From contig DAIDIW010000002.1 of the NCBI GenBank assembly GCA_027451665.1, positions 48,251 through 112,250 on the forward strand: a DNA stretch of 64,000 nt, in the 5' to 3' direction. The notes beneath the pieces are model-generated. The model worked only from the letters and a program-made list of their open reading frames with translations. It made no database searches and had not been told where the DNA came from. Source of the stretch: Candidatus Kaiserbacteria bacterium. Lineage in GTDB: Bacteria; Patescibacteriota; Minisyncoccia; Phycocordibacterales; Phycocordibacteraceae. Below, piece by piece: positions 7,710 to 49,117 of this stretch (position 1 is the stretch's first letter; each line of letters begins with the position of its first letter). The position numbers were made by a program, and so were the translations under genes.

Positions 7710-8945
7710 TCATTCATAGCGCAGCGCGTCGATGGGGTTAAGCGCGGCAGCTCGGCGCGCGGGATACCAGCCGAAGACGATGCCGATTGCCGCTGAGACG
7801 CCAAAGGCAAGGAGTACGGATTGCGAGGTAACCTGCGCTGTAACGACGCCCGTGGCAGTCACGAGATAGCTCGCGCCCCAGCCGAGCGCTACGCCGATGG
7901 TGCCTCCGATGAACGTGAGTGCGACCGCTTCGGCGAGGAATTGCGTATTGATATCGGCACGTGTTGCGCCGATGGCCTTACGCAGACCGATCTCGCGCAT
8001 CCGCTCGGTCACGTTCGTGAGCATCATGTTCATAATGCCGATACCGCCTACGATGAGCGAGATGCCCGCGACCGCTGCCAGAAGGGTAGTGAACGTGCTC
8101 GTGACCGAGGAGGCTGCGGAGACGAGATCCTGCTGGTTCAGGATGCTAAAGTCGGCCTTTGTCGGATCGCTTATCCCATGGCGCGAAAGCAGTAGAGCCG
8201 TGACGTCATTCTGCACCTGAGTCATCGATTGCTGCGAGGCGGCCTGGATGTCGATTGTCGAAAGGTATTGGTTGCCTTCGCCGGCAAAGTACTGAAGCGC
8301 GGTGCCAAGCGGTATGAACACCTCGTTATCCTGGCTTCCAAAGCCGGAGCCGCCTTTCGTTGACATCAGTCCGATAACCGTGAACAGGAGATTATTGATG
8401 CGGATCTTGTCCCCGACGAGATTTGTAGAGGTCGCGTTCGGACCCCAGAGATCAGTCGCAACTGTCGAACCGATGACCGCGACCTTTTGGAGCGATTGTG
8501 ACTCGACGTCATTCAGGAATGAACCTTGCGCCATAGTGATATTGCGGATCGTCGCGTAACTGCCGTTCACGCCATCGACGGTCGTGTTCGTATTCGCGCC
8601 GGCAACGGCGATTTGATAACGCGCCGCGTATTCTCCGGAAACGAGCGAAACATTAGAGACGCCGGCGATAGCTATCTCGTCGCTCGGCGTAAGCGATTTC
8701 GCGCTCCCGCGGCCGCCTGAAGCACCGAAACCAAATGTGCGTGCGGCACCTGGCATGACCTCGAGCAGGTTCGATCCGAGGGAATTAATGGAGTTGGAAA
8801 TCGTATTTTGCGCGCCTTGGCCGATCGCGGTAAGGGCTATGACCGAGGCGATCCCGATGACGATGCCGAGGATGGTGAGACCGCTCCGCACCTTGTTCGC
8901 GGAGAGCGCAGCATACGTCTCGTCAACCAGGTCGTTCGTGGTCAT
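7710..8945 (-). CDS. ABC transporter permease, MacB/FtsX family
   Basis: N-terminal TM, a large periplasmic domain and a C-terminal FtsX-like 4-TM region. It overlaps the upstream ATPase by 4 nt. Confidence 0.8.
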   Translation of the reverse strand: MTTNDLVDETYAALSANKVRSGLTILGIVIGIASVIALTAIGQGAQNTISNSINSLGSNLLEVMPGAARTFGFGASGGRGSAKSLTPSDEIAIAGVSNVSLVSGEYAARYQIAVAGANTNTTVDGVNGSYATIRNITMAQGSFLNDVESQSLQKVAVIGSTVATDLWGPNATSTNLVGDKIRINNLLFTVIGLMSTKGGSGFGSQDNEVFIPLGTALQYFAGEGNQYLSTIDIQAASQQSMTQVQNDVTALLLSRHGISDPTKADFSILNQQDLVSAASSVTSTFTTLLAAVAGISLIVGGIGIMNMMLTNVTERMREIGLRKAIGATRADINTQFLAEAVALTFIGGTIGVALGWGASYLVTATGVVTAQVTSQSVLLAFGVSAAIGIVFGWYPARRAAALNPIDALRYE

Positions 8946-9697
8946 GAGAGCTTGTTCGTTACCGATTCGTCGGTGCCGTCATAGAGCTTTGTTTCCTGCG
9001 TTGCGTCGCGCGGCGTCGGATTCTTCTCATCCGCTACGACGCGGCCATCCCTTAGGCGTATGAGACGGTCAGCGTGCTCGGCGATGTCCGGTTCGTGCGT
9101 GATGAGGACGATCGTGCGCCCATGCGCGCGGTTCAACTTCTGGAGCGTGCCAAGCACGACGAGCGAGGTTTTTGAATCGAGGTTGCCCGTGGGCTCGTCC
9201 GCGAGAATAAGAGCCGGATCGTTTACGAGGGCGCGAGCGATCGCGACACGCTGTATCTGCCCGCCCGAAAGCTGATTCGAGAGATGGGAGAAGTGGTCCT
9301 CGGAGAGTCCCGCTGAAACGAGCGCCGCGCGGGCCCGGCGCTCGCGTTCCTCTTCCGGGACGTTTGCGTAGACGAGAGGAAGCATGACGTTCCTCAGTAC
9401 TGTGGTGCGGGGAAGGAGATTGAATGCTTGGAAGACAAAGCCGATTTTGTCCTTGCGCACCTCCGCGAGCTCGTCGTCAGTCATGGTCGATACGTCGCGA
9501 TCCTCGAGCACGTAGGTACCGCTCGAAGGTGTATCGAGACATCCGATGATATGCATCAGAGTCGACTTGCCGGAGCCCGAGGGCCCCATAATGGACACGA
9601 ACTCGCCTTCACGGATTGTGAATGAGATGCCCTTGAGCGCCGTGTACGCCTCTTGTCCCTCCCCGTAGGTCTTTGTGATGTCTGAAAGCTCAATCAT
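8942..9697 (-). CDS. ABC transporter ATP-binding protein (MacB/LolD-like); start trimmed to 'MIELSDITKTYG'
   Basis: Walker A 'GPSGSGKST', signature 'LSGGQIQRVAIARAL' and Walker B 'ILADEPTGNLD'. The ATG at 9697 lies 1 nt after the upstream stop. Confidence 0.85.
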   Translation of the reverse strand: MIELSDITKTYGEGQEAYTALKGISFTIREGEFVSIMGPSGSGKSTLMHIIGCLDTPSSGTYVLEDRDVSTMTDDELAEVRKDKIGFVFQAFNLLPRTTVLRNVMLPLVYANVPEEERERRARAALVSAGLSEDHFSHLSNQLSGGQIQRVAIARALVNDPALILADEPTGNLDSKTSLVVLGTLQKLNRAHGRTIVLITHEPDIAEHADRLIRLRDGRVVADEKNPTPRDATQETKLYDGTDESVTNKLS

Positions 9698-9698
9698 G

Positions 9699-11495
9699 TT
9701 AGCCGCCGATGGCCCGGAAGGCCCCGCCGCCCCTGAAGCTTCCGTTTCCCCCGAAGCGCGAGGTGGCATTGGCAGCAGCTGACGGGACCGCTGCCGCGCT
9801 CGTCGTAGTCTCGGTCACTACCTCCTCACCGGCGACCAGGCCTTGTTCGACGATGGTATTCGTATCATCGGTGAGTCCTGTGCGCACGAACACGCGTTCG
9901 GGCGGCGTCGCGCTTGGCACACCGGGTGCGGTCTCGCTGCCGGCGAGCGGCGTTTTGAATACCTCCACATAGCTCTGACTGCCGGATGTCTTTATCGCGC
10001 TGCTCGGGACCGTAAGCCCCGTCTCGGTGCCGGTTACGATCTCGGCGGTCGCACTCATACCGGGCAGAACCTTAGCGTTCGGCGTATCAAAAGTGATGAT
10101 GGCGTCATAGGAGACGACGCCCTGGTTCGCCGATCCGAGCGTATCGACCGCGGAGACCGTGCCGGCAATCGTGACACTCGGCAGCGCATCGAAAGTGAGC
10201 GTTGCCTTCTGTCCCGTTTTCAGCTTCGCCGCATCGACCTCGTTCACGGAAATGTCGACGGTCTGTTGTCGGGAGACCAGCGTTGCGACGGCAGTGCCCA
10301 GCGCGGCTTCATCGAACCGCTTCACGTCGACTGAGGCGATCGTGCCGGAGAATGGCGCTGTCACCGTGTAGTCAGCTACCGTTTGTTGCGCATTTGTCAC
10401 CGCCTGTTCAGCCTGCTCGAGCGCGAGCTGCGCCTGCTGCACGGTGAGGGCGTTACTACCGCCCTGCGTCACCTGCAACGTATTCTGCGCCTGGGCGAGA
10501 GATTGTTCTGCAGAAACGATGTTCGACTGTATGGTAAGCGCGGTCGCGAGGTCGTTGCTCATGGTCGTCGCGTCGGATGCGGTTGTCGTGAGCAATGCAT
10601 TCAGGACCGTACTCGACTTCAGATTGTAAGTCGTGTAGTCGTTATTTACCCGATCAAAAAAATCGTGCACGTTTTTCACTGCTTCAGCCATCGCTTGGGT
10701 GGCGGTATAGGTGGTTTGGGCGAGCGAGACGAGCTCGTCATTGGTGGCGGTGAGCGCGGTGGCCTTATAGGAAGAGGCAGCCGTGTTATAGGCCGCTACG
10801 GCCGCGGTGTAGGACGTCTGTGCGGCATTCTTGTAGATGCCGATCGAGTTGTCATATTGCGAGACCGTATCGGCGAATGCGTCCACATTGTCCTGGGTCG
10901 TACGGCCAGGCACGTTCTGGTCGTTCAGCGAATGGTCAAGGTCGTTCTGGACCGTCGACAGATCGCTATAGATATTCGACAGGGAAGCGTACGACGCGTC
11001 ATGCGTCTTTTGAAGCGCAGTCTGCGCATTCGTAACGCCGTTCTGGGCCGTGAGCAGGTTGAGCGAGAGCGTGGAAGACGCGGTCGCCTGTTCGTAGGAG
11101 AGCTGCTCGTTCTTAAGCGACAGCTCGGCGTTATGAAGCGTTTGAAGCGCATCGGTCGCGTCAAGCTGTGCGACGGCTTGCCCGGCGATCACCTGTTCAC
11201 CAGGCGTGACATAGACGGCCGTCACTTGACCCGAGGCTTTCGGCGTCAAGGGAAGCTCGTCCGACGCGCTTACCTGGCCGGTCTCGGTCATGCTCGCGAC
11301 GACCGTACTGGTCGCGACCCGGGCGGTCACATACAGAGTCTGCGACGGTGCGGCGGTAATCGCGACATACGCTTCATACCCGCCGTACAGCAACGCGATT
11401 GCGATCAAGAAGCTCCAGAAAGGATGTGAGCGGGCGAAGGCGCGGGCGGCCAGGTATGCTGATTCGGGTACGCGGGAGCGCGAGGCGGCGGCCAT
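9699..11495 (-). CDS. periplasmic adaptor / membrane-fusion protein (HlyD/MacA-like) with a long coiled-coil insert
   Basis: N-terminal TM, a beta-barrel/lipoyl-like 'GQVTAVYVTPGEQVIAGQAVAQLD', and an extended Q/A/T-rich coiled coil. Confidence 0.65.
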   Translation of the reverse strand: MAAASRSRVPESAYLAARAFARSHPFWSFLIAIALLYGGYEAYVAITAAPSQTLYVTARVATSTVVASMTETGQVSASDELPLTPKASGQVTAVYVTPGEQVIAGQAVAQLDATDALQTLHNAELSLKNEQLSYEQATASSTLSLNLLTAQNGVTNAQTALQKTHDASYASLSNIYSDLSTVQNDLDHSLNDQNVPGRTTQDNVDAFADTVSQYDNSIGIYKNAAQTSYTAAVAAYNTAASSYKATALTATNDELVSLAQTTYTATQAMAEAVKNVHDFFDRVNNDYTTYNLKSSTVLNALLTTTASDATTMSNDLATALTIQSNIVSAEQSLAQAQNTLQVTQGGSNALTVQQAQLALEQAEQAVTNAQQTVADYTVTAPFSGTIASVDVKRFDEAALGTAVATLVSRQQTVDISVNEVDAAKLKTGQKATLTFDALPSVTIAGTVSAVDTLGSANQGVVSYDAIITFDTPNAKVLPGMSATAEIVTGTETGLTVPSSAIKTSGSQSYVEVFKTPLAGSETAPGVPSATPPERVFVRTGLTDDTNTIVEQGLVAGEEVVTETTTSAAAVPSAAANATSRFGGNGSFRGGGAFRAIGG

Positions 11496-18908: not shown

Positions 18909-20876
18909 CTACGGCGCGGGATTGCAGTCGTCGCAGATGCCGAGCCGTTCGAGCGCGTCGAGGTAATCGAGCGTCGTGTTCACGAACGCGGCATGGCTCC
19001 ACGCCAGCGGTGCGACCGAACGCTGCGTGCGTGTGTCGAAGTCGAGCTGTTCCGAGAGAACGCCGGAATCCTGTGCATGCGCAGCCACCCAGGCGAGAAT
19101 GGCACGGGCTGGTTCGAGATCGGCATCCTCTTTCGCGCGCGCGATGAGAAATTGCGCGTGCCAGAGGGTCGCGATGAACCAGGGATTCCCGCGCCCTCCG
19201 CTCCGGAAATACTGATCGCCTTCGTAGCGCATGAGGCCGCCAGCTGCTGTGAGACGCTGCGTGGTCGCGGTGAACGCATCGACGAGCCGCGGATCGTCCG
19301 GCGCGAGTACGCCGAACGCGAAGAGCCCGTATACGCTCGAGATATCAGGCGTCCGATCATAGACGGTCTTCTCCTCGAACGTCTCGATGAGCTTCACGAA
19401 TCCGCCTGCTTCTTCGGAAGCGAAATGCGCAAGGATCGCCTCGCGTATCTCTCGCGCAGCGCGTTCGTACTCCTGCGCGCGGTCTTCTTTCCCAAGCACG
19501 CGCGCGATCTCCGCAGTCGCCGTGAGCGCGCCGAACACCGCCGCAGAGGTGAAGGTGGAGATGCCGTGTTTCTCCTCCCAGAGATCGTAGGAGGCGTGGG
19601 GCAGCCCGGTCGCCGCGTCGCGGTAGCGCACCATGAAATCCGCCGCCTTTGCGATGAGCGGGTTATAAAGCTTCTCGATGAATTCGAGATCCTTGCTGTG
19701 CCGGTACTGTTCCGTGATCGTCCATACGACGAGCGCGGTCTCGTCCTCCTGGATCGGCAGCTGGAGTTCGCCGTCGCGAATCCAGGGATGCCACGAAGAG
19801 CCGAGCGAACGGTCCGGAAGATACTTGTGCATGAAATAGCCTTCGTCCGAGATGACTTTCTCGCAGAACGCAAAGAACCGCTCGGCGACGTTCGGATCGC
19901 CCGCGCGCAAGAGCGCGCGAGCCGCGAAGCTCGCGTCGCGCGGCCAGACGTAGGCGTAGGTGTCCTCATTGTATTGGAGCGTCTCCGCGTCTGCGCTCGC
20001 GATGATGCCGCCATCATCGTCGGCGTGCGCACGCACGAACATGAGCGACCTGCGGAAGAGGGCGGCAACCGCCGGTGAAAGGCCATGGAAATCCCAGTCG
20101 TACCGATGCACCCATGCCTTCCAGTAATCGCTCGTGGTCGTGAGGAGGTGCGTGGGGCTCTTGGCGAGCACGTAGGCATTGAGGGCTGTGGCTTCAGGGA
20201 TGCCTTCGGCGGCGGTGAGCCAATAGTGGACGGTGCCCGACGAGTCAGGCGCGAGCGCAAGGGTGAATCCCATGACCGAATCGACGGACCCGTGCTCGAC
20301 GGCGTTCTTCGAGAGCACCCCGTCTTCCGCATCGCGGAAGGTGCCATCCTTGCCGGCGATGCCGAATAAGCCGACGGCATACTCGTCGAATGGTGTCTCA
20401 CCCGCGCGACCGTTCGCGAGGAAGGCGCGGGCGCCCTTGTAGTGGATGAGGGAATGGCTCGCGGGGTCGAAGTAGGCGGTGTCGCCTCCCGGCGAATGGC
20501 TGATCTCGAACTCGTGACCGAGGAAGAGTTTCACCGTGCGCGGCTCATCGCGAAGATTGCGGATCTCGATCTTACGCACGAGTATAGGACGTTCATTGTA
20601 GACGACATCGGTAAACGATAGGCGTAGCCCGAGCGCCTCGTGTTCGGCGGTGATGCGGCTCTCGAGGGAATCCTCAGCACTGCCGACGCGCACGCGCCAG
20701 CGGGTATCTTCCGAGAGCCAGGAACAGCTTCCGTCGGCGTAGATGCCGATGCGGTGCCGCATCGCGCCGCCCGCATGATTCTCGAGTCCGACGTGAGGAA
20801 AATAAAGGTCGCGCACCTCGCCTCGGTCATCGAGCGTCACGAGGAGCGAACCGTTGCCGAGGATGAGCGATCTCAT
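18909..20876 (-). CDS. glycoside hydrolase family 15 (glucoamylase/glucodextranase-like)
   Basis: N-terminal beta domain, then an (alpha/alpha)6-type region with the 'LWEEKHG' general-acid motif. Confidence 0.7.
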   Translation of the reverse strand: MRSLILGNGSLLVTLDDRGEVRDLYFPHVGLENHAGGAMRHRIGIYADGSCSWLSEDTRWRVRVGSAEDSLESRITAEHEALGLRLSFTDVVYNERPILVRKIEIRNLRDEPRTVKLFLGHEFEISHSPGGDTAYFDPASHSLIHYKGARAFLANGRAGETPFDEYAVGLFGIAGKDGTFRDAEDGVLSKNAVEHGSVDSVMGFTLALAPDSSGTVHYWLTAAEGIPEATALNAYVLAKSPTHLLTTTSDYWKAWVHRYDWDFHGLSPAVAALFRRSLMFVRAHADDDGGIIASADAETLQYNEDTYAYVWPRDASFAARALLRAGDPNVAERFFAFCEKVISDEGYFMHKYLPDRSLGSSWHPWIRDGELQLPIQEDETALVVWTITEQYRHSKDLEFIEKLYNPLIAKAADFMVRYRDAATGLPHASYDLWEEKHGISTFTSAAVFGALTATAEIARVLGKEDRAQEYERAAREIREAILAHFASEEAGGFVKLIETFEEKTVYDRTPDISSVYGLFAFGVLAPDDPRLVDAFTATTQRLTAAGGLMRYEGDQYFRSGGRGNPWFIATLWHAQFLIARAKEDADLEPARAILAWVAAHAQDSGVLSEQLDFDTRTQRSVAPLAWSHAAFVNTTLDYLDALERLGICDDCNPAP

Positions 20877-20879
20877 GAG

Positions 20880-22157
20880 CTATACGCCGACTCCGACGGC
20901 CGCTTCGCGGGACGGCTGCGTACGCGCGGCGGTCGCGGATCCATGCGGGGACGTTTGCACGGAGGATTCGTTCACGCGCAGGCGCCACTCGAGATCCTTG
21001 AGCACATGCATGTAGATCTTATAGGCCTCATAGGGCGATCCATAGGGGGAGAAGTACGCATGTACGTCGCCGTCCGCAGACCACTTCGTGCACAGATAAT
21101 AGAAATGATCAGACGTCTGAAGCCGTCGCCAATCCTCGAGGAGCGACGCGTCCGAGGCCGCATGCACGCGCGCCTCGAGGCCGTAGAGCGTCCCGATCGC
21201 TGCTTGTTGCAGTTCGTTCCCGAGCCAGGCGGTGAGATCACGGTCGGTGTCGGCCCAGGTAGTCACGTGCGGTACGTCGATGACGCCGCGGTCTGGAAGT
21301 GCGGCGATAGCGCCGGATGGCGTCATGAACGTGATTTGCGGGTTCTTGAGCAGTTCGCCCGGAAGCGCCGAGAGGAAATCGAAGATTCCGGTATCTTCCC
21401 ATTGATGCTCGCCGAACGTTTCGTAATCCATAAAGAGATTCATGGTCTCGCCGTCGGCTGCGGAGAGCCACTGGCCAAATTTCTCCGTCGTAAGCGGCCA
21501 CTCGTTCCAGTCGCGCGAGGAGAAGCGGAAGGCGACATCATCTGAAAGCTTGTAGTTTTTGAGTAGGAGTTTCGTGCGGCGCGCGTTCATCGGGCGATAC
21601 ACATGATTCGGACTTCGTCCGCCGAGTACCGGATCCCACCCCTCGGCGAGAATGCCGAGATAACCGTGTTCGTCGGCCCACGCGCCGAGTGCGTTCGTAT
21701 ACGATAGTTCCGTATTGCGGAAGACGCGCGGCGACTGCTCGAAAAGCCGTTCGATCGTCTCGGCATGCATGCGTACTTGGCGCTCGAATTCGGGGCGCGA
21801 GTAGAAGAAAGAAAGCGAATGGTAGTACGTCTCGCCGAGGAATTCGACGCGCCTGCTCTTCGCGAACAAACGGAAGAGATCGATAACGTCCGGGGCATCG
21901 CGCTCGAGCTGCTCGAGCGCGATGCCCGAGATGGAAAGCGAGAATCGGAATTGCGGATAGCGCTCAAGCAGCGCGAGCAGACGCTGAGCGGTAGGCAGGT
22001 ATGACTTCGCTGCTACTTTTTGTAAGACGCGAGCATTATTCAGGTCGTTCTCTTCATCGCCGCCGAAATATGCGTGGTCGTGTCCGATATCGAAAAGGCC
22101 GTACCGCTTCACGCGGTAGGGCTGGTGCACTTGCAGGTAGATGCAGACGTTCTTCAT
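20880..22157 (-). CDS. glycoside hydrolase family 57 (alpha-amylase/4-alpha-glucanotransferase-like)
   Basis: 'YLQVHQPYR' GH57 N-terminal signature. It lies 3 nt from GH15 and overlaps GT4 by 4 nt. Confidence 0.7.
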   Translation of the reverse strand: MKNVCIYLQVHQPYRVKRYGLFDIGHDHAYFGGDEENDLNNARVLQKVAAKSYLPTAQRLLALLERYPQFRFSLSISGIALEQLERDAPDVIDLFRLFAKSRRVEFLGETYYHSLSFFYSRPEFERQVRMHAETIERLFEQSPRVFRNTELSYTNALGAWADEHGYLGILAEGWDPVLGGRSPNHVYRPMNARRTKLLLKNYKLSDDVAFRFSSRDWNEWPLTTEKFGQWLSAADGETMNLFMDYETFGEHQWEDTGIFDFLSALPGELLKNPQITFMTPSGAIAALPDRGVIDVPHVTTWADTDRDLTAWLGNELQQAAIGTLYGLEARVHAASDASLLEDWRRLQTSDHFYYLCTKWSADGDVHAYFSPYGSPYEAYKIYMHVLKDLEWRLRVNESSVQTSPHGSATAARTQPSREAAVGVGV

Positions 22158-23476
22158 ATGCCCGACAGCGCGAGCTCGTCCATGATCGCGCGAATCTCGC
22201 TCGCGGCGCGATCCCAGGACAGCCGCGCGGCCGCGTTGTGTCCGCGCACGGCATGGGCTTCGCGTTCCTTAGGCCGTGCGGCGAGCACCTGCTCGATCGC
22301 CTGCGCGAGCGCATCGGCATCCCAGAAATCGACCTGTATCGCTTCGGGTACTGCTTCCGCGACACCGGACTGCTTCGAGATGATGACCGGCGTACCGAGG
22401 CGCATGGCCTCAAGGGCGGATATGCCGAACGGCTCCGAAACGCTCGGCATGACGTAGACGTCGGCAGACGCGTATGCTTCATGGAGATCGTGGTCGCGCA
22501 GGAAGCCTGGGAAGAGCACGCGGTTCCCGATGCCAAGACCCGCCGCTTGCCTCAGGAGTTGAGCTTCCATGTCGCCCGAACCTGCCATAACGAACAGCAC
22601 GTCCGGGTCCTTTGCTGCCACTTTTGCCGCGGCGTTCAGGAAGTGATCCGGACCTTTCTGGAGCGTGAGCCGGCCGGCGAACAATACAAGCGTATGACCA
22701 GCGCGAGTCAGCTGGGCGAGGCGTCCGGCACGCATTTCGTCATACGCAGGTGCCGTCTCGTCGTCTACACCGTTCCACACCGCGTGCGTCTTTTCTCTCG
22801 GAACGCCATAATGCTGTATGGCCATGTCTCTAGTGCGACGCGATACCGCGATCACCCGATCGGCGGCGTGCATGCCCTCGCGCTCGAGATCGTATACCGT
22901 TTGGTTCACGCGCCCGCCGCCCGAGCGATCGAATTCGGTCGCATGCACGTGCGAAATGAGCGGCTTCTTTGAGATGCCCTTCGCAGCCTTTCCCGCACCG
23001 AACGCGAGCCAGTCATGCGCGTAGATGATGTCATGTGGTTCTCGCTTTGCGATCTGCGCGCCCGCTTTCGCATACCGCTTCACCTGGCCGATCATGTCCT
23101 CGCCGTAGAGCGGCGTGCCGTCAGCTGCCGTTGCAGAAGGGTAGGCATACGTCACCTTCGCGCCTGCTTCCTCAAGCTCGGCAGCGACCATCTTGGCGTA
23201 GGGAACGGAGAGCGGGTACGCTTTCGGCAGGACGAACGTGATATCGACGTCTTGCCTCGAGAGCGCCCGCGTAAGGCCAAGAGAAGCGACACCCAAGCCG
23301 CCGCTGTTAAACGGGGGGAACTCCCAGCCGAAGATGAGCGCCCGCAGGCGACGCCTAGCGCCGTCTACAGCCGCGCGACCCGAGCGCGTATGCGTGAAAA
23401 CCGCACCAAGCAACGCTCCGGCGACGAAAAGCGAGAGGAAGAGTGCCAGAAGGTTAGCTATGAAAATAGTACTCAT
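22154..23476 (-). CDS. GT4/GT5-type glycosyltransferase, glycogen/alpha-glucan synthase-like, with an N-terminal TM
   Basis: 'GWEFPPFNSGGLGV' and 'EPFGISALEAM' GT-B motifs. It is the first gene of the GT4-GH57-GH15 operon. Confidence 0.7.
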   Translation of the reverse strand: MSTIFIANLLALFLSLFVAGALLGAVFTHTRSGRAAVDGARRRLRALIFGWEFPPFNSGGLGVASLGLTRALSRQDVDITFVLPKAYPLSVPYAKMVAAELEEAGAKVTYAYPSATAADGTPLYGEDMIGQVKRYAKAGAQIAKREPHDIIYAHDWLAFGAGKAAKGISKKPLISHVHATEFDRSGGGRVNQTVYDLEREGMHAADRVIAVSRRTRDMAIQHYGVPREKTHAVWNGVDDETAPAYDEMRAGRLAQLTRAGHTLVLFAGRLTLQKGPDHFLNAAAKVAAKDPDVLFVMAGSGDMEAQLLRQAAGLGIGNRVLFPGFLRDHDLHEAYASADVYVMPSVSEPFGISALEAMRLGTPVIISKQSGVAEAVPEAIQVDFWDADALAQAIEQVLAARPKEREAHAVRGHNAAARLSWDRAASEIRAIMDELALSGI

Positions 23477-23552
23477 GGCCGACGAGCTATTTCCATCGTA
23501 ACACTGTGTACATGCTCGTAGTGCTAGAAATGCACAAGCTGTTGCACAAATA

Positions 23553-23580
23553 TTGACAATTTTCGCATGGCATGTATAGT
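23553..23580 (+). promoter_or_regulatory. strong sigma70-like promoter: TTGACA, 16-bp spacer, TATAGT
   Basis: TTGACA at 23553-58 and TATAGT at 23575-80. An AGGAGG Shine-Dalgarno sits at 23596-23601, 5 nt before the ATG at 23607. Confidence 0.55.
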
Positions 23581-23606
23581 ATTCTCAGAGTTTCCAGGAG
23601 GCAACC

Positions 23607-23816
23607 ATGTCGAAATGGTTCACACGCATACGTTCGTTATGTTTGATCAGCATGATTACGACCGGGGCCCCCTTGCTATCCCTGGCGTGCTTCTGCAGGG
23701 CTTTTCACTGTAGGGTCCCTGTGTCTGAACAGGGATACCTCGTCATCGCAATTGCCGTTATGACTATCTCGGCAATCTTATGGATGACGCTTGAGTGGAT
23801 CGCTCAACAATACTGA
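23607..23816 (+). CDS. 69-aa two-TM small protein in an AT-rich islet
   Basis: It has the best promoter and RBS signals in the window. Sequence: MSKWFTRIRSLCLISMITTGAPLLSLACFCRAFHCRV...ILWMTLEWIAQQY. Composition is atypically AT-rich. Confidence 0.45.
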   Translation: MSKWFTRIRSLCLISMITTGAPLLSLACFCRAFHCRVPVSEQGYLVIAIAVMTISAILWMTLEWIAQQY

Positions 23817-23824
23817 CGGGAACT

Positions 23825-23870
23825 AAGCCGGCTTCTGCGTAACAGGAGCCGGCTAAACATTTTATTTATA
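23825..23870 (+). terminator. rho-independent terminator
   Basis: 12-bp stem AGCCGGCTTCTG / CAGGAGCCGGCT with one G-U pair and loop cgtaa, followed after 5 nt by 'ttttatttat'. Confidence 0.5.
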
Positions 23871-24414
23871 GGTGGACCGTGAGGCTAAAGGTTCCGCGCC
23901 AGGGGAGGACCTCCTCGATGATTGGATGCGCGTAGCGCGCGTTACCGGGCGCCTCGACTGCGGTAGGGAGCTGGGAATCGTAACAGAGGAAGTCGAGCGC
24001 TTCGGGTGTTTCTTCGTGGCCCCACGAGCTTATCCAGTGTAAGTCGCCGTTCCCCCAGATGGAATCGATGACGAAGAGCGTCGGCTTATCCTCATGGATC
24101 GCTTCAACGAGGCGGTCCTTGAATTTCCGGCGCGTCCAGAAGTGCACGTCGGAATCGATGCCGAAGCGGCCAAGTATGTGCGGCATGAAATAGGGGAGCG
24201 AGATGTCGTGCTTGCGGAAGAGATCGTTCAGGTACAGCTTCTCGACTGCTGCGTCGTGCCCGAACGCACGCAACACTGCCTGTAGCTGGTAGGCGCCGCA
24301 CTGCTGATGGATATCCTCGGCCATCGGGAATATGTTCGGTTGCTTCGAGACGAGTACCATTGCGCGCACTATATCATATGGTGTCAAGGATTCTGACATG
24401 GAAGCGCTATACAC
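23866..24414 (-). CDS. papain-like (peptidase C39-like) cysteine peptidase domain protein; start may be at the internal Met (24399)
   Basis: 'HQQCGAYQLQAVLRAFG' resembles the C39/papain catalytic Cys segment (Q...CG.A). A candidate His lies in 'HWISSWGHEE'. Confidence 0.4.
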   Translation of the reverse strand: MYSASMSESLTPYDIVRAMVLVSKQPNIFPMAEDIHQQCGAYQLQAVLRAFGHDAAVEKLYLNDLFRKHDISLPYFMPHILGRFGIDSDVHFWTRRKFKDRLVEAIHEDKPTLFVIDSIWGNGDLHWISSWGHEETPEALDFLCYDSQLPTAVEAPGNARYAHPIIEEVLPWRGTFSLTVHL

Positions 24415-24473
24415 GGGCCTCCCAGGTGGTCATACGGATTCTGCTCGCCGCAGGGTATACTGCTTTCACCTTC

Positions 24474-25073
24474 ATGGTGCTCACGCATTTCATTGATTTC
24501 ATCGTGACGGGTTCCTTGCCGCACGTCTACCTTATTCCGGTTGCGATTATCGTCGGGACCTTCATCCTCGAGGACGCGACCACGTTGCTTGTCGGTGTGC
24601 TCGCCGCTGACGGGTCTATCGGGATTCCGCTCGCCATCATTTCGCTCTACGCCGGAATCATTCTCGGTGACTTTTGGCTTTATGGCATGGGCTATCTCGC
24701 TGCGAACCATAAGTGGGCGGTGCGTCTCGTGAATCATCACCGGTACGACCATATCCGGAGTTGGCTCGAAGAGCGGTTTGAAAGCGCGGTATTCACGAGC
24801 CGCTTCGTACCGGGTATGCGGCTGCCCACCTATACGGCCGCCGGTTTCCTGAAGCTTCCGTTCCGGCGGTTCGTGCCTCCTGTAGTCATCGGGACGCTCA
24901 TCTGGACATCTGCGTTCTTCGGAACGGCGTATCTTTTCGGTAATCTCACCGAACAGTGGCTCGGCGTGTGGCGATGGCCGCTCGCGTTCTCCCTCATCAT
25001 CGGCTGGTTCCTTTTCACTCAGTGGCGCATTCGCCGCAAGATGCGCGAGGAGGATCGAGAAAAGCAGCGGTAA
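24474..25073 (+). CDS. DedA/VTT-domain (SNARE-associated) membrane protein; start trimmed to 'MVLTHF'
   Basis: 'FVPGMRLPTYTAAG' DedA signature. Confidence 0.7.
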   Translation: MVLTHFIDFIVTGSLPHVYLIPVAIIVGTFILEDATTLLVGVLAADGSIGIPLAIISLYAGIILGDFWLYGMGYLAANHKWAVRLVNHHRYDHIRSWLEERFESAVFTSRFVPGMRLPTYTAAGFLKLPFRRFVPPVVIGTLIWTSAFFGTAYLFGNLTEQWLGVWRWPLAFSLIIGWFLFTQWRIRRKMREEDREKQR

Positions 25074-25098
25074 GCCTGAGATACGGTATACTGGCGGT

Positions 25099-25488
25099 AT
25101 GTTGCTGAATGTCTGTATAGCGAAATTGCATCGCGCGACCGTTACCGATGCCGACCTGAATTACATCGGCTCCATAACGATCGATGAGAAGCTACTGGAA
25201 GCTGCGGGTCTGCGGGAAGGGCAGATGGTACAGATCACGAACGCGAGCAACGCCGTGCTCTGGCGCACCTACATTCTGAAAGGGGAGCGCGGCAAGGGCC
25301 AGATTGTGCTGAACGGCCCGCCGGCCCGCCTATTCCAGAAGGGCGATAAGGTGGTCATCCTGGGCGAAGCCTGGGTCACGCCCGAGGAGGCGGACGCCAT
25401 GAAGGGTCCGACGGTCGTCTTCTTTACCGAACAGGGTCCGAATCCGAATGAGATCAGGGAAGTGAAGAGGGTTGAGCGTCCGGTCTAA
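25099..25488 (+). CDS. panD: aspartate 1-decarboxylase (pyruvoyl-dependent)
   Basis: 'KLHRATVTDADLNYIGSITID' with the Gly-Ser self-cleavage site, co-linear with E. coli PanD. A strong 11-bp-stem hairpin plus T-tract follows at about 25493-25550. Confidence 0.85.
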   Translation: MLLNVCIAKLHRATVTDADLNYIGSITIDEKLLEAAGLREGQMVQITNASNAVLWRTYILKGERGKGQIVLNGPPARLFQKGDKVVILGEAWVTPEEADAMKGPTVVFFTEQGPNPNEIREVKRVERPV

Positions 25489-25625
25489 TACCGGCTGGAA
25501 GCCGGCTGTGCAGCGGCTTCCAGCCGCGGCGTTTGCTTTTCCAACAATCCGGCGTAGAGTCAAATCCGGATGGCCTTTTAGGTAAAAGGCTGTATCGTGT
25601 AACTACACCTGCGAAGGGGAATGCA

Positions 25626-27401: not shown

Positions 27402-28214
27402 TTAAAGGAAGAGCCACGCGGCGAACACGAGCGAAAGGACGATACGGTACCAGCCGAAGCTCTTGAAAGAGTGGCTGCGTACATAGCCGAGAAACCAGCG
27501 CACGATCGGCATGGCCACGAGGAATGCGATGACGAATCCCACGCCAAGCGCGGTCCACTCGTGTGGGGTATAAGAGAACGCATGTGATTTATAGAGGGAA
27601 TAGAGGGTAGCGGCGAACATGGTAGGCACGGCAAGCAGGAAGGAAAATTCGACGATCGCCGGCCGCGAGATACCCATCGACATGCCGCCCACGATAGTGG
27701 CGCCGCTGCGGGAGACGCCCGGGATGATGGCGACCGCCTGCGCGAACCCAATGCCGACCGCTTGCGGATAGGAGATCTTGTCGAGCTCGGGCACTTCAAG
27801 GCCCGGAGCAGCCCCAGAGCCTTGATCCGCAGCCGCCGCATCTTCTCGCGAACCGTAGAACGATTCGAACGCGATGAGGATGATGCCGCCCACGAAGAGC
27901 GTCGCGAGCACGACGAGATCGCTCCCGAGCAGTTCCTTCACGAGGTGATAAGCGAGCAGTCCAATGATGCCGGTCGGGACGAATGCCGCGATGAGCTTTC
28001 CGATCCGATCCCAGTGCCAGAATTTCTCCCAGAAGACGATAACAACCGCGAGGATCGCGCCGAGTTGTATTGCGATATCAAAATTCTTCGCGAAGTCGGT
28101 CGCCGGGACGCCGAGCAGGGAAGAGGCGAGGATGAGGTGTCCGGTCGATGATACCGGGAGGAATTCCGTGAGCCCTTCAACCAGCCCGAGGATGACCGCA
28201 TGTAGGATAGTCAT
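27402..28214 (-). CDS. uppP: undecaprenyl-diphosphatase (UppP/BacA); start trimmed to 'MTILHAV'
   Basis: 'GLTEFLPVSSTGHL' and 'PGVSRSGATI' BacA motifs. Confidence 0.85.
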   Translation of the reverse strand: MTILHAVILGLVEGLTEFLPVSSTGHLILASSLLGVPATDFAKNFDIAIQLGAILAVVIVFWEKFWHWDRIGKLIAAFVPTGIIGLLAYHLVKELLGSDLVVLATLFVGGIILIAFESFYGSREDAAAADQGSGAAPGLEVPELDKISYPQAVGIGFAQAVAIIPGVSRSGATIVGGMSMGISRPAIVEFSFLLAVPTMFAATLYSLYKSHAFSYTPHEWTALGVGFVIAFLVAMPIVRWFLGYVRSHSFKSFGWYRIVLSLVFAAWLFL

Positions 28215-28263
28215 GACGGAATCGTAGCATGCAAAAAGACGGCTCTCGTGAGAGCCGTCTTTT

Positions 28264-28662
28264 TTACTTGCTTGCGACGACGATACTGACCTGCGCGGTT
28301 CCTTCGGTGAGGAACCGAAGATCCTGCGCAGCAGCCCGGGTGAGGTCGATGCGACGACCTTTCCGTACCATGGCTTCCGACGGCCCGAGATCATGCGAGA
28401 CGGTTCGCACTTTCTTACAATTCCGTAGATTCGTCACGATGAGCTCGGTTCCGAACGGGAAATCGACGGTCGCGGCAATGTGCGGATTGTTCGCATTGAA
28501 CCGCGTGCCGTCCGCCGTATGAGCATTACAACAGTCGTACCATGATGCCTGTGTAATGAGCGCACCGCGTGGCGGAGGACAGGACGTCTTCGTGACCGGA
28601 TCCGTGGCGAGAGCCGCCGGCACGCACACGAGTACGCCGAGTAGAATGAACAACGGTTTCAT
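28264..28662 (-). CDS. RlpA-like double-psi beta-barrel (DPBB) secreted protein
   Basis: Signal peptide, then 'ASWYDCC...TADGTRF' DPBB/RlpA motif. Confidence 0.55.
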   Translation of the reverse strand: MKPLFILLGVLVCVPAALATDPVTKTSCPPPRGALITQASWYDCCNAHTADGTRFNANNPHIAATVDFPFGTELIVTNLRNCKKVRTVSHDLGPSEAMVRKGRRIDLTRAAAQDLRFLTEGTAQVSIVVASK

Positions 28663-34876: not shown

Positions 34877-35758
34877 ATGAATCGCTACCTCTTCCTTATC
34901 ATCCTTGGGATCATGGCCTCGATTGCGCTCTTCGCGCTCTCGCTTGGGGGCAGCCATATCGTGCTGTTCTCTCCGCAGGGTTATATCGCGAAGCGCGAAG
35001 TCGCGCTCATGGCGCTCGCACTTCGGCTCATGCTTATCATTGTGATTCCGGTGTTCGCGCTCACTTTCGCCATCGCCTGGCACTATCGCGCGGGGAACGC
35101 TAAGGCACGCTACCTTCCAAACTGGGAGCATAACCGGCTGGAAGAAGCGATCTGGTGGGCAGTGCCGTTCCTCATCATTATCGCGCTCGCGAGCATCACC
35201 TGGACTTCCTCGCACGCGCTCGATTCGTACAAGGGGATCGCAACGTCGACGCCGGCGCTCGAAATTGATGTCGTTGCGCTCGATTGGAAATGGCTGTTCA
35301 TCTATCCCGCACAAAGGATCGCCACCGTGAACACGCTTACAATCCCGACGGGCACGCCGATTGCCTTCAAACTCACTGCGGATGCGCCCATGAATGCGCT
35401 TTGGATACCGCAGCTCTCGGGGCAGGAGATGGCGATGCCCGGCATGGTGACCGAGCTTCATATCGAGGCTGACGCGCCCGGAGCGTACCACGGGCTCTCT
35501 GGCAATTACAGCGGCGCCGGGTTCGCCGGGATGCAGTTCACCGCGCATGCGGTATCGAAGTCTGCTTTCGGCGCTTGGGTCGCCGAGACGCGTATGTCCA
35601 CCTCGACGCTTGATCGCGTAACGTATGCGTCGCTCGCCGCGCCGAGCGAGAATGTCGCGCCCGAGCGCTACGTGCTCGGTGATCCGGGCTTGTATACTTG
35701 GATCGTGATGAAATACATGACGCCGCCGGCCGCCTCGTCGACGCCGGCCTCCGGATGA
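34877..35758 (+). CDS. cyoA: quinol oxidase subunit II (CyoA/QoxA-like; no obvious CuA ligands)
   Basis: Two N-terminal TM helices, then a cupredoxin-like domain. It is adjacent to cyoB. Confidence 0.7.
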   Translation: MNRYLFLIILGIMASIALFALSLGGSHIVLFSPQGYIAKREVALMALALRLMLIIVIPVFALTFAIAWHYRAGNAKARYLPNWEHNRLEEAIWWAVPFLIIIALASITWTSSHALDSYKGIATSTPALEIDVVALDWKWLFIYPAQRIATVNTLTIPTGTPIAFKLTADAPMNALWIPQLSGQEMAMPGMVTELHIEADAPGAYHGLSGNYSGAGFAGMQFTAHAVSKSAFGAWVAETRMSTSTLDRVTYASLAAPSENVAPERYVLGDPGLYTWIVMKYMTPPAASSTPASG

Positions 35759-35760
35759 CT

Positions 35761-37716
35761 ATGCTTGGAAGACTCACGTTTGCCGCCCTCGAGCAGGGCC
35801 CCATCGTCTTCGCCGCACAGATGCTCGTGCTTTTCGGCGCGCTCGGTGTTGCTGCGCTCATTACCTATCTGAAACGCTGGAAGTGGCTCTGGAACGAGTA
35901 TCTCACATCGCTCGATGCGAAGAAGATCGGCATCATGTATCTCGTCGTTGCGGCCGTAATGCTCGTCCGCGGCGGCATCGACGCGCTTATGATGCGCGCA
36001 CAGCAGGCGGTCGCGGTGGGGAATAATGCCGGCTACCTACCGCCGGAGCACTTCGCGCAGGTATTCACCGGGCACGGCGTCATCATGATTTTCTTCGTTG
36101 CGATGCCGCTCATGTTTGGCATCATGAACGTGATCCTGCCAGTCATGCTCGGGACGCGCGATGTCGCGTACCCGTTCCTGAACTCGGTCTCGTTCTATCT
36201 CTTTACCGCGGGTGCGGCGCTTGTGATGGCTTCGCTTGTGATAGGGCAGTTCGCGACGACCGGATGGACTGCCTACCCGCCGCTCTCAGAGCTCGCCTAT
36301 AGTCCGGGCGTCGGCGTCGACTACTACATCTGGGCGCTCCAGATCTCGGGCATCGGGACCCTTCTCGCCGGCATCAATTTTATAGTGACGATCCTTAAGA
36401 AGCGTGCGCCCGGCATGTCTCTCATGAAGATGCCGATGTATGCCTGGACGGTGCTCGGAAGCATGATGCTTGTCGTCACTGCGTTTCCGGTGCTTACGGC
36501 TACGCTCGGATTGCTCACCCTCGATCGCTATCTCGGCATGCATTTTTTCACGGCGGGCGGCGGCGGCAATATGATGATGTACGTGAACCTGTTCTGGGCG
36601 TGGGGCCACCCTGAGGTCTATATCCTCGTACTTCCGGCGTTCGGCGTCTTCAGCGAGGTCGTTGCAACGTTCTCTGGGAAGCGGCTCTTCGGCTATACCT
36701 CCATGGTGATCGCAACGATGGCGATTACGATTCTTTCGTGGCTCGTCTGGCTACATCATTTCTTCACCATGGGCGCGGGCGCGGATGTGAACGCCTTCTT
36801 CGGCATTATGACGATGATCATTGCCATTCCGACGGGCGTGAAGATCTTCAACTGGCTCTTTACCATGTATCGTGGCCGCGTACGCTTCACGACGCCGATG
36901 CGCTGGTTCCTCGGATTCGTCGCGCTCTTTACGATTGGCGGCATGGCGGGCGTGCTTATGGCAGTGCCGCCGGCAGATTTCGAGCTCCACGAAAGCCTGT
37001 TCCTTGTCGCGCACTTCCACACGATGATCGTCTCCGGCGTTCTTTTCGGCGATTTTGCGGCGCTCGCGTACTGGTTCCCGAAAGTGTTCGGATTCACGCT
37101 CTCGGAAAAGTGGGGGATACGCGCGTTCTGGGCCTGGACGGTGGGGTTCATGCTCGCCTTCATCCCGCTTTATGTGCTCGGCTTCATGGGCGCCACGCGC
37201 CGGCTTGATCACTATCCGGCCGGGCTCGGATGGAATCCGCTCTTCATCGTCGCTGGCGTTGGTGCGCTTGTAATCGCTTCGGGCGTCGTATGCCAGGCGA
37301 TTCAACTCTATGTGAGCATTCGCGACCGTCGGAAGAATCGAGACTTGACCGGAGATCCGTGGGACGGACGGACGCTCGAGTGGTCGACTCCCTCTCCCGT
37401 CCCGTTCTATAACTTCGCAAGGACGCCAATAGTCGCTATCCGTGATCCGTTCTGGGCGGTGAAGTACGGTCTGGCGCCTCAGACGCCGGAGAACGACTAT
37501 CTTTCCATCGAGCTGCCGCGCGGGAGCGGTCTTGGGCTCGTCATTGGCGGAGCCGCCTTCGCCTTCGCCTTCGCGATGGTCTGGCATATCTGGTGGCTCG
37601 TGATGCTCGGCGCGCTCGTGATGCTCGGCGCGCTCTTTGTGCGCTTCCTCGACGAGGATACCGAGTCAATCATCTCTGCCGATACTCTGCGCCGCTTTGA
37701 TACCGCTACCGTATGA
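35761..37716 (+). CDS. cyoB: quinol oxidase subunit I (heme-copper oxidase catalytic subunit)
   Basis: 'WAWGHPEVYILVLP' CuB/His region and 'HFHTMIVSG' conserved HCO motifs. Confidence 0.9.
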   Translation: MLGRLTFAALEQGPIVFAAQMLVLFGALGVAALITYLKRWKWLWNEYLTSLDAKKIGIMYLVVAAVMLVRGGIDALMMRAQQAVAVGNNAGYLPPEHFAQVFTGHGVIMIFFVAMPLMFGIMNVILPVMLGTRDVAYPFLNSVSFYLFTAGAALVMASLVIGQFATTGWTAYPPLSELAYSPGVGVDYYIWALQISGIGTLLAGINFIVTILKKRAPGMSLMKMPMYAWTVLGSMMLVVTAFPVLTATLGLLTLDRYLGMHFFTAGGGGNMMMYVNLFWAWGHPEVYILVLPAFGVFSEVVATFSGKRLFGYTSMVIATMAITILSWLVWLHHFFTMGAGADVNAFFGIMTMIIAIPTGVKIFNWLFTMYRGRVRFTTPMRWFLGFVALFTIGGMAGVLMAVPPADFELHESLFLVAHFHTMIVSGVLFGDFAALAYWFPKVFGFTLSEKWGIRAFWAWTVGFMLAFIPLYVLGFMGATRRLDHYPAGLGWNPLFIVAGVGALVIASGVVCQAIQLYVSIRDRRKNRDLTGDPWDGRTLEWSTPSPVPFYNFARTPIVAIRDPFWAVKYGLAPQTPENDYLSIELPRGSGLGLVIGGAAFAFAFAMVWHIWWLVMLGALVMLGALFVRFLDEDTESIISADTLRRFDTATV

Positions 37717-45620: not shown

Positions 45621-45969
45621 ATCTCGAAGCCTTGAGGGCTTGTCCCTCTTGATCTCTTGACTCCTTGAGCCCTCTCGTTTTTTGCGGATACAACTGCAAA
45701 AGCGCGAGGGCTTTTTCTTTGGTCACTTTTTGGGCAACCCGTGGGCAACCGCGGGCATTACCAACCAACGCAACGCGGACAAAAAGTGGCCAGAGAAAAC
45801 GTTACACCCTCCCAACTTGGGAAGGGTGTTTCGCTTTGACTGCTTCAGAGGCAGAACAGTCCGGGAGCCTTTTGAGGACTGCGTAACGTTCACGATGCGC
45901 ACTTGTTCATCACCTCCTGTATGCGATCTGATTGGTGGGAATCCTGACCATTTGGGATATAATCAACAC

Positions 45970-47162: not shown

Positions 47163-47227
47163 CCCGTACCCCAAATTTTGCACACCCTCTTGGGAGGATT
47201 AACCTGTGCGCATAACCCTCCCGCCAT

Positions 47228-48294: not shown

Positions 48295-48347
48295 TGTGCA
48301 AGAAAAGGGGTGCATTCCAATTACCGCTGGAATGTCCTTTGTTTCCC

Positions 48348-49106: not shown

Positions 49107-49117
49107 GGACCCACTTT

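Follow-up and report, generated by a model that had tools for sequence, protein, structure and literature searches.

A predicted stand-alone C39-like cysteine hydrolase gene abuts a probably unrelated ORFan reading frame for a small hydrophobic protein

We analysed a 64,000-nucleotide stretch of DNA (hereafter the window), and this study concerns the region between a glycan operon and the gene for a DedA/VTT-family membrane protein, both assigned by family search and synteny. The operon occupies 18909-23476 on the minus strand and comprises its first enzyme, GT4 (22154-23476), followed by GH57 (20880-22157) and GH15 (18909-20876), all read on that strand, and the DedA gene lies at 24474-25073 on the plus strand. 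Two convergent genes stand between them. On the plus strand, a 69-codon open reading frame, pep69 (23607-23816), is preceded by a promoter-like site and a Shine-Dalgarno sequence and followed by a hairpin. On the minus strand, a gene at 23866-24360 encodes a protein of 164 amino acids without a signal peptide, which profile searches, predicted fold and conserved residues mark as a candidate stand-alone, C39-like cysteine hydrolase of the papain fold. A first-pass annotation had read the two as one functional unit, a small peptide with its peptidase, and had suggested a bacteriocin-like or holin-like accessory role.

The islet that holds the pep69 signals (23477-23866) is AT-rich, as first described, with a GC content of 0.482 compared with a window mean of 0.589 (sd 0.038); just 2.1% of the 390-bp windows in the 64 kb have a GC content as low or lower. 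It contains a sigma-70-type promoter-like site, TTGACA-16-TATAGT, at 23553-23580 on the plus strand, with 11/12 matches: the -35 hexamer TTGACA at 23553-23558, a spacer of 16 nt and the -10 hexamer TATAGT at 23575-23580. This site points away from the GT4 gene and gives a predicted transcription start at about 23587. It had been singled out as the best promoter of the window and, while its position and spacing stand, it is only joint best, because a second 11/12 site is found at 28827 on the minus strand. The AGGAGG Shine-Dalgarno sequence (23596-23601, plus strand) lies 5 nt before the ATG at 23607, as had been reported, and is unusual for this genome, given that 61/71 long ORFs lack a Shine-Dalgarno core within 20 nt of their first ATG. 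A 16-nt inverted repeat joins the 5' ends of GT4 and pep69 and is only weakly above chance.

Both expression signals recur in the closest relative, the locus L001, with a different coding sequence behind them. The promoter core common to the two loci is AAATATTGACA-N16/17-TATA[GC]T-ATT, and in L001 it drives mem171, a two-TM protein, together with a paralogue of the hydrolase. Because L001 has both the promoter and the Shine-Dalgarno site, we read these two elements of pep69 as inherited and its coding sequence, of lower GC, as apparently new.

The pep69 frame would specify a protein composed almost entirely of hydrophobic, membrane-type sequence, with 1-2 predicted TM segments, 4 Cys and a CxCxxxHC cluster. 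It had been described as a Cys-containing two-helix peptide: the cysteines are there and the second helix is strong on the Kyte-Doolittle scale (2.6), whereas the first is marginal (1.7). A search of 5.8e9 proteins returned pep69 itself as the sole match, tblastn on all fetched loci revealed no homologue in those of the syntenic relatives, and none was found in viral contigs, PHROGs, plasmids or phages. In Smith-Waterman comparisons with shuffles, pep69 was unrelated to every neighbouring membrane protein or slot protein of the relatives (z <1.1). Profile libraries, PADLOC and PHROGs gave no demonstrable family membership, and the PADLOC defence models matched neither pep69, mem171 nor the hydrolase paralogue. 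The proposed pairing had been made to depend on conservation of the small ORF beside homologues of the peptidase, and this ORFan is conserved nowhere. We also ruled out pep69 as a remnant of the mem171-paralogue cassette, since no DNA or six-frame similarity extends past the promoter. Judged from sequence, pep69 would most likely be a small membrane protein specific to this lineage, not a precursor processed by the adjoining hydrolase.

Between the convergent genes lies a terminator-like element at 23826-23869, assigned to neither strand, in which a GC-rich hairpin (23826-23854) is followed by the AT-rich tail AAACATTTTATTTAT. The hairpin has a 12-bp stem and a dG of -22.9 kcal/mol (z -5.2), and 0/200 shuffles were equally stable. 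The terminator of the first-pass annotation is therefore real as a hairpin but is not called by a consensus terminator scan, strict scanning having missed it because the T-tract begins 5 nt past the stem. Likewise, the convergent gene overlaps it as described only by its stop codon, which falls in the T-tract and leaves the stem untouched. The full pep69 transcript with the hairpin folds at z -4.9, and at z -1.65 without it. No Rfam 15 family matched 22500-25500 at E up to 1, and one tRNA was the only match at gathering scores across the whole window. A structured noncoding RNA was thus rejected as the main reading of the islet, because the excess structure comes nearly wholly from the terminator hairpin.

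The same data bear on whether the 69-codon ORF is translated at all, or belongs to a noncoding or relic transcript, left over when a promoter outlived its mem171-paralogue cassette and that cassette disappeared or gave way to other sequence. That the promoter predates its present cargo follows from its presence in L001, and a relic would also agree with the lack of homologues, with the z score of the full transcript and with a codon-usage model that does not favour the pep69 frame, although the same model misassigns the DedA gene too. Other features are those of a coding unit. A perfect AGGAGG is ideally spaced, although Shine-Dalgarno sites are rare in this genome, the frame opens exactly at the ATG so spaced and stops 10 nt ahead of the hairpin, and GC3 in this frame (0.63) is above GC1 and GC2. 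Little excess structure is left once the hairpin is removed, Rfam offers no match and no DNA remnant of the L001 cassette survives. We therefore regard an untranslated ORF as unlikely, and treat pep69 below as a putative small membrane-protein gene.

The convergent protein had been given a length of about 180 amino acids. Its start was reassigned to the ATG at 24360 (164 aa) rather than the GTG at 24414 (182 aa) because all homologues open with M[VIL]LVS[KR]. A -10-like TATAGT box (24368-24373, minus strand) lies 7 nt upstream of this ATG, and a TATACT-like box 6-9 nt ahead of the ATG recurs at many long ORFs of the window, an arrangement that points to a start of the leaderless type at the hydrolase gene.

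Direct searches with the 164- or 182-aa protein in Pfam, NCBIfam, PADLOC, PHROGs and PDB sequences gave no family match, PADLOC returning only DpdF fragments at E 0.02 or worse. A profile search recovered its relatives, 24 clusters among 1.84 billion representatives, which makes the family extremely rare; it is also unannotated, and a literature search found no description of it or of its genomic context. Peptidase_C39_2 (PF13529) is matched by 13/25 family members, three of them above the gathering threshold of 24 bits (P0018 at 35.5, P0019 at 28.0 and P0025 at 24.9), with P0007 at 21.8; the members that pass are at 22-27% identity. The window protein does not match this model, even at E up to 1, but its core alignment (A5) aligns with the PF13529-positive group (A7) in hhalign with a probability of 99.8% (E 1.5e-27, 152 columns) and with the motifs in register. 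Peptidase_C39 (PF03412) is not matched by the window protein, and the best E in the family is 0.094, in one distant member. The earlier label of C39/papain-like peptidase consequently fits at the level of fold and superfamily and not for C39 proper. On these profile comparisons, the 164-aa protein is assigned to a C39-like branch of the papain fold, with Peptidase_C39_2 as its closest curated family.

The predicted structure and the conserved residues agree with this placement. AlphaFold2 gave a model with a pLDDT of 96.2 from an alignment of 23 sequences, which was needed for a confident result, as an alignment of 4 sequences reached only 44.6. The model has the papain-like alpha+beta fold of clan CA, with the Cys at the N-terminus of a helix, and its predicted fold is that of double-glycine C39 peptidase domains. 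QQCGAYQ, which the first-pass annotation took for the catalytic-Cys motif, corresponds to residues 19-25, and the putative triad that includes its near-invariant Cys runs in the order Cys21, His108, Asp128. All three residues are at least 90% conserved in 23-25 sequences, which bears out the Cys and His expected from the first reading, and are invariant in a core of 12 sequences; Asn140 and Trp113 are invariant or near-invariant in the family. A profile search of PDB sequences found a single solved protein, Alr0975 (E 3.5e-4), with its Cys, His and Asp aligned to the putative triad. In C39 and phytochelatin-synthase enzymes, an oxyanion-hole Gln lies about 6 residues before the Cys. The window protein has Glu15 at 6 residues upstream, a position that varies across the family, and another residue, e.g. 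the invariant Asn140 or Gln130, might be the oxyanion residue. We infer the function of the hydrolase from its modelled fold and these conserved residues.

With both genes described, we can weigh the proposal that the convergent C39-like protein is a peptidase which processes pep69 as the precursor of a bacteriocin or toxin. The shared fold with double-glycine C39 peptidase domains and the strong signals of the peptide gene fit this proposal, and a MacB/FtsX-HlyD exporter is encoded at 7710-11495, although 12 kb off. However, pep69 lacks a Gly-Gly leader, as had already been noted, and equally a Gly-Ala or Gly-Ser one, and is hydrophobic over nearly all its length. The genes are convergent, the peptidase is neither fused to nor adjoined by an ABC transporter in the window locus, where its neighbours are DedA, pep69 and GT4, or in the relatives, and the family has no significant match to PF03412. 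Above all, pep69 is found only in this genome and every relative keeps the peptidase gene without it, which largely refutes the pairing. A bacteriocin with its processing peptidase is thus highly improbable here.

A second possibility joins the two genes as a holin/endolysin-like lysis or autolysis pair, with pep69 as the pore former and the C39_2-like protein as a cell-wall peptidase. Peptidase_C39_2 is among the listed catalytic domains of endolysins (PMC8223927, PMC5017753), and the hydrolase model resembles phage lysin domains with TM scores of 0.6-0.68. Yet neither protein has a PHROG match and no phage genes lie near them, and the hydrolase carries neither a signal peptide nor a wall-binding domain. 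Its gene is chromosomal and syntenic in about 10 lineages, most of them without a small-ORF partner, and a pair read convergently, not in the same direction, with one half unique to this genome, makes a lysis cassette very unlikely. The holin-like and bacteriocin-like readings both go unsupported, for want of a leader, an adjacent transporter and conservation of pep69.

The setting of the hydrolase gene is better conserved than its small neighbour. About 10 related bacteria, all uncultivated and most of them from groundwater, carry it with a divergent DedA gene on one side and a glycan operon on the other. The order DedA, hydrolase, variable slot and anchored GT4 or GH130 operon is found in L001, L006, L007, L015, L018 and L020-L023, and is partly kept in L009, L011, L013 and L017. 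The anchor is an N-terminal TM segment, MSTIFIANLLALFLSLFVAGALLGAVFT, encoded by the first 28 GT4 codons (23393-23476, minus strand) and common to the GH130 enzymes of the relatives, with the motif A[LIV]xxS[LF]FVxG[AG]xxG[AT]. Each locus has a single copy, as does the 64-kb window, on the first enzyme of the operon, although GT4 and GH130 belong to unrelated catalytic families. Its conservation is seen in the protein sequence, third codon positions being close to random. The synteny falls within one narrow clade; the link between hydrolase and glycan cluster could be historical rather than functional, and GT4 appears to have a conserved upstream motif of its own.

The slot between the hydrolase gene and the operon, which pep69 fills in the window, is empty in four relatives and in L001 holds mem171 with the C39-like paralogue. 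mem171 is frequent there among the relatives; it has a conserved cytoplasmic C-terminal motif (RY..VQ...AAR..Y..G.K.EA) and no conserved GG in its N-termini. What survives of the first pairing is that a different small two-TM protein often stands beside this hydrolase family. In one alternative, pep69 would be a non-orthologous replacement of mem171, acting with the hydrolase and the anchored glycan enzymes in one membrane complex. It shares slot, promoter, Shine-Dalgarno site and first-gene position with the mem171 of L001, both proteins are predicted hydrophobic helical hairpins, and small two-TM ORFs also adjoin family members in L012 (53 aa), L013 (82 aa) and L015/L018 (150 aa, on the same convergent strand). 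On the other side, the two proteins have no sequence similarity, pep69 lacks the C-terminal motif, small hydrophobic ORFs are common by chance, and a membrane partner is dispensable, since four lineages have none. Such a replacement is accordingly a doubtful explanation.

The arrangement is probably explained by two unrelated units that abut, a stand-alone C39-like hydrolase gene and a leadered ORFan unit. The first (23866-24360, minus strand) would encode a cytoplasmic cysteine hydrolase in which Cys21, at a helix start, serves as the nucleophile and Asp128 orients His108, which lies on a beta-strand 20 residues before it. Most likely it acts on amide bonds, peptide or isopeptide, by cleavage or transfer, and its substrate or partner presumably belongs to the membrane-associated glycan cluster. 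The second unit (23553-23869, plus strand), with promoter, AGGAGG, ORF and hairpin, would be self-contained, with a leadered transcript, and occupy the variable slot. A bolder proposal, to which we assign a low probability, is that the hydrolase cleaves the shared anchor or juxtamembrane module, or mem171, and so releases, activates or turns over the glycan enzyme, pep69 having displaced mem171 under the ancestral promoter; hydrolase, mem171 and anchor would then make up an undescribed membrane-tethering or processing module.

The main value of these results is corrective, as a plausible pair of peptide and C39 peptidase proves not to be a bacteriocin unit. The hydrolase adds one member to a fold family already known and is modestly interesting as an unannotated and extremely rare stand-alone C39-like subfamily with an intact putative triad. 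It also keeps strict synteny with membrane-anchored glycan enzymes whose two catalytic families are unrelated but whose N-terminal anchor is the same, a hint that one module may serve to target or process them. pep69, in turn, offers a clean case in which promoter and ribosome-binding site are inherited while the small-membrane-protein gene that follows them is an ORFan, useful for studying the origin of new small genes. No long-standing question is answered by these findings, and the functions stay inferred.

Among known proteins, those of Peptidase_C39_2 (PF13529), for example the putative C39-like peptidase 3ERV (PDB) from Bacillus anthracis, resemble the window protein in having a stand-alone domain of the papain fold, about 150-200 aa long, in which the Cys precedes the His and the Asp comes last. 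The window protein and its closest relatives nevertheless score nothing against the model itself, and the window protein has motifs of its own (CG.YQ, LHWIS.WG, YDSQ and GN), no signal peptide or extra domain, and a distinctive genomic setting. The C39 domains of PCAT/AMS transporters (LahT150 6MPZ, ComA 5XE8, PCAT1 8VP3/7S5J) show the same Cys-His-Asp order and work in the cytoplasm, where the hydrolase is also predicted to reside. In contrast to them, the window protein lacks both a fused transporter and a double-glycine substrate gene and does not match PF03412, and its family has no conserved oxyanion Gln.

Alr0975 (NsPCS; PDB 2BTW, 6TH5), a prokaryotic phytochelatin-synthase-like protein, shows about 12% identity to the window protein; enzymes of the phytochelatin synthase family work with a Cys-His-Asp triad (PMC9265389). 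The window protein is about 50 residues shorter, lacks the glutathione-binding insertions and lies in a context without sign of thiol-peptide metabolism. Cell-wall peptidase domains, such as the pseudomurein endoisopeptidase PeiR (8Z4H) and the N-terminal domains of phage Lysin A and endolysins, have the same fold, but unlike them the window protein has no export signal, wall-binding module, phage context or PHROG match. As for pep69, there is no sign of an antisense RNA or of lysis genes, unlike the case of type I toxins and holins; it nonetheless resembles type I toxins, class II holins and small membrane regulators in its 69-aa size, in having a hydrophobic hairpin behind a basic N-terminus and in its strong, self-contained expression unit.

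The 69-aa hydrophobic ORF, pep69 (ATG 23607 to 23816, +), is preceded by a Shine-Dalgarno AGGAGG (23596-23601, +) placed 5 nt before the ATG and by a sigma-70-type promoter-like site with 11/12 consensus matches (TTGACA at 23553-23558, a 16-nt spacer and TATAGT at 23575-23580, +). These elements agree with the first-pass annotation, except that the promoter is not the sole best of the window but the joint best, as a scan of both strands over its whole length found one further 11/12 site at 28827 (-). The proposed terminator was confirmed as a GC-rich hairpin 3' of pep69 with a 12-bp stem (23826-23854; dG -22.9 kcal/mol, z -5.2), but not by a strict terminator scan, since the T-rich tail starts 5 nt past the stem. 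The islet (23477-23866, 390 bp) is indeed AT-rich: its GC is 0.482, the mean of the window being 0.589, and only 2.1% of segments of that length are as low. A broader, GC-poorer stretch at ~45900-52200 (minima 0.44-0.47) contains the two tRNA genes (Thr 45408-45484, Asn 52409-52481) together with a radical-SAM gene. Of the two helices attributed to the peptide, hydropathy shows one as a strong hydrophobic segment (residues ~43-62, KD 2.6) and the other as marginal (~10-30, KD 1.7). A 16-nt inverted repeat (14/16 matches; 23387-23402 and 23617-23632) makes the mRNAs of pep69 and of the divergent glycan-operon gene GT4 near-identical there (GGTT..CACGCATACG), encoding FTHTRS in GT4 (codons 27-33) and FTRIRS in pep69 (codons 5-10). 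It is weakly above chance, with ~0.2 such repeats expected from shuffles in the 700-bp region, and may be the trace of a small inverted duplication.

The convergent gene (23866-24360, -) encodes the C39-like hydrolase. Its mechanical ORF of 182 aa begins at GTG 24414, but all homologues begin at a Met equivalent to ATG 24360 (M[VIL]LVS[KR]), so the protein has 164 aa and not the ~180 first reported. A TATAGT box, read in the sequence 7 nt 5' of ATG 24360 (-), fits a window-wide leaderless-type start pattern: taking the first ATG as the start of each long ORF, no Shine-Dalgarno core was found at 61 of the 71, and many have, 6-9 nt ahead of the ATG, a box resembling TATACT (e.g. 30298, 61379, 13704-, 31760-, 57020-, 14328, 24360-), which suggests that leaderless mRNAs predominate in the source genome. 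The pep69 unit, leadered, AGGAGG-bearing and of lower GC, is atypical of this genome. A like exception, with a leader and AGGAGG, is the L001 member of mem171, a family of 2-TM proteins met beside hydrolase genes in relatives.

Both pep69 and the L001 mem171 gene lie on the strand opposite the hydrolase gene, in the variable slot that separates it from the first gene of the glycan operon, and they share the string AAATATTGACA-N16/17-TATA[GC]T-ATT...(A)AGGAGG-N5-ATG, which indicates that their promoters and ribosome-binding sites are homologous. No sequence common to the window and L001 was found 3' of the ATG. Moreover, pep69 had no match in any fetched locus of the relatives (tblastn, blastn) nor among viral contigs, plasmids, phages and PHROGs, matched only itself in 5.8 billion proteins, and resembled none of the slot proteins significantly (z below 1.1). 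Its frame opens exactly at the perfect Shine-Dalgarno and shuts just ahead of the hairpin, with a GC3 of 0.63 that is above GC1 and GC2; a codon-likelihood model does not favour this frame, but the same model fails on the DedA gene too. The transcript region had no Rfam match, and its folding z is -1.65 with the hairpin removed. On these sequence features, the most probable reading of pep69 is a gene for a small membrane protein specific to this lineage, placed behind an inherited promoter, with the peptide predicted to be translated and membrane-inserted; that the transcript is an untranslated relic seems unlikely, though by no means negligible. Functionally, pep69 could conceivably replace mem171, but this finds no positive support in the sequences.

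Among relatives, the slot is empty (about 80 bp) in L006, L007, L009 and L017, and contains a 138-143-aa 2-TM protein in the same direction as the hydrolase gene in L020-L023, that 2-TM protein together with a 4-TM protein of 150 aa encoded on the other strand in L015 and L018, and the 2-TM protein followed by a paralogous C39-like gene in L011. In the closest relative (L001/L008, 81% identity), the gene for the 171-aa family member runs into the start of one for a C39-like paralogue of 167 aa; the two lie on the opposite strand. The mem171 family (L001 7042-7557, -; L011 2-370; L015 4532-4996; L018 4001-4420; L020 873-1304; L022 2935-3351) comprises seven clusters in 5.8 billion proteins, has no Pfam match and shares a conserved cytoplasmic tail (RY..VQ...AAR..Y..G.K.EA...AI..TTP). 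Every member examined is in this locus type, beside C39-like genes and the glycan operon with its anchor and nowhere else; neither a mem171 homologue nor a second C39-like gene is present in the window.

All relatives whose flanking DNA is long enough show the order divergent DedA gene, hydrolase gene, variable slot and glycan-enzyme operon. The operon reads GT4-GH57-GH15 in L001, L006, L007, L011 and the window, and GH130-GH130(-HAD) in L009, L013, L015, L017, L018, L020 and L022. GT4 and GH130 are unrelated enzyme families with one common anchor, a hydrophobic N-terminus of ~28 residues (MS.IF.AN.LAL..S.FV.GA..GA.F[ST]) forming a TM segment whose core (LAL..S.FV.GA..GA.F) is GxxxG-like. Each locus has a single copy, as does the 64-kb window (23393-23476, -, on GT4), invariably on the gene that comes first after the C39-like gene slot; on GH130 it lies at L009 726-815, L013 929-1018, L015 5107-5196, L017 577-666, L020 1420-1509 and L022 3455-3544. 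A GH130 N-terminus retrieves that of the window GT4 in tblastn (E 3e-5), and the segment is kept at the protein level, as amino-acid identity between GT4 and GH130 versions (39-68%) is above third-codon-position identity (25-54%). Motifs 5' of the GT4 start, at 23527-23536 (+ strand GAAATGCACA) and 23483-23505, are kept in the window, L001, L006, L007 and L011, reading TGTGCATTTC...TGCTAC..TGG...TAGCTC in the GT4 sense; this suggests a conserved promoter or operator belonging to the operon itself, also where it begins just 82 bp past the hydrolase gene. In the literature searched there was no description of the recurring combination of the hydrolase with mem171 and a glycan enzyme that bears the anchor, and we consider it very unlikely that the three form a true processing or tethering module.

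The DedA/VTT gene (24474-25073, +) belongs to the UptA-like undecaprenyl-phosphate transporter family, and a BacA/UppP gene (27402-28394, -) flanks the locus on the same side beyond PanD (25099-25488, +; in L009 and L013, too, a neighbour of the C39-like gene), so that lipid-carrier recycling genes lie beside the glycan operon. A MacB/FtsX-type permease and an HlyD-family adaptor (7710-11495, -), 12 kb from the pep69 unit, showed no link to it. Cytochrome oxidase subunit I (35698-37716, +) and a cytochrome b-like gene (41915-43378, -) indicate a respiring organism; related contigs are largely from groundwater metagenomes.

The 164-aa hydrolase itself is without a match among the models of Pfam, NCBIfam, PADLOC and PHROGs or the sequences of the PDB, and has only three other close homologues in 5.8 billion proteins; profile searching brought up 24 relatives in 1.84 billion cluster representatives. 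Family alignments show Cys21, Gly22, His108, Trp109, Trp113, Gly114, Tyr127, Asp128, Gly139 and Asn140 to be invariant or nearly so, the Cys and His of the dyad among them. Peptidase_C39_2 is matched by 13 of 25 family members, three exceeding the gathering score, and some also match BtrH_N, GtgE or DUF3335. The core group aligned to the PF13529-positive group in hhalign (probability 99.8%, E 1.5e-27), and among PDB sequences the family profile picked out Alr0975 (E 3.5e-4), which is phytochelatin-synthase-like and has its Cys, His and Asp in register, the triad of the phytochelatin synthase family being Cys-His-Asp (PMC9265389). AlphaFold2 gave no usable model from a four-sequence alignment (pLDDT 44.6), but with 23 sequences reached a pLDDT of 96.2 and a pTM of 0.91, with Cys21 at a helix start, and Foldseek concurred with a C39-like papain fold. 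Together, these profile comparisons and the predicted model establish that the protein belongs to the papain fold's C39-like branch, and the original C39/papain-like call was right at the level of fold and superfamily.

Several relatives carry two C39-like family members within a few kb (L013 194-775 and 5001-5498; L012 89-604 and 891-2027, -; L001 6001-6495 and 6542-7045, -), among them one of 378 aa in which the domain is C-terminal. Members P0012 and P0008 are followed by small 2-TM ORFs (53 and 82 aa). In L017 (26-484), the orthologous ORF stops at 152 aa, past the WGYD motif and short of the catalytic Asp, and may reflect a frameshift, pseudogene or assembly error.

Phage lysin domains were also matched by Foldseek, and this fold resemblance is the sole point in favour of a holin/endolysin pair of pep69 and hydrolase, against which stand the arrangement of the genes, the chromosomal synteny of the hydrolase gene, surroundings free of phage genes and a hydrolase that carries no export signal. 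Having no signal peptide, the hydrolase is predicted to be cytoplasmic. The bacteriocin model suggested by the first-pass annotation, with pep69 as precursor and the C39-like protein as its processing peptidase, fails as well: pep69 is not conserved beside the homologues, it has no Gly-Gly leader and there is no transporter. C39 proper, whose model PF03412 the hydrolase does not match, is characterized by a transporter fusion, a double-glycine substrate gene and an oxyanion Gln upstream of the Cys, whereas the hydrolase has no such fusion, no such substrate gene was found and the Gln position is not conserved in its family. It is instead a new, previously unannotated member of the stand-alone C39-like clan-CA hydrolases; it would act on an amide bond in the cytoplasm, and its partner would belong to the membrane-associated glycan cluster.
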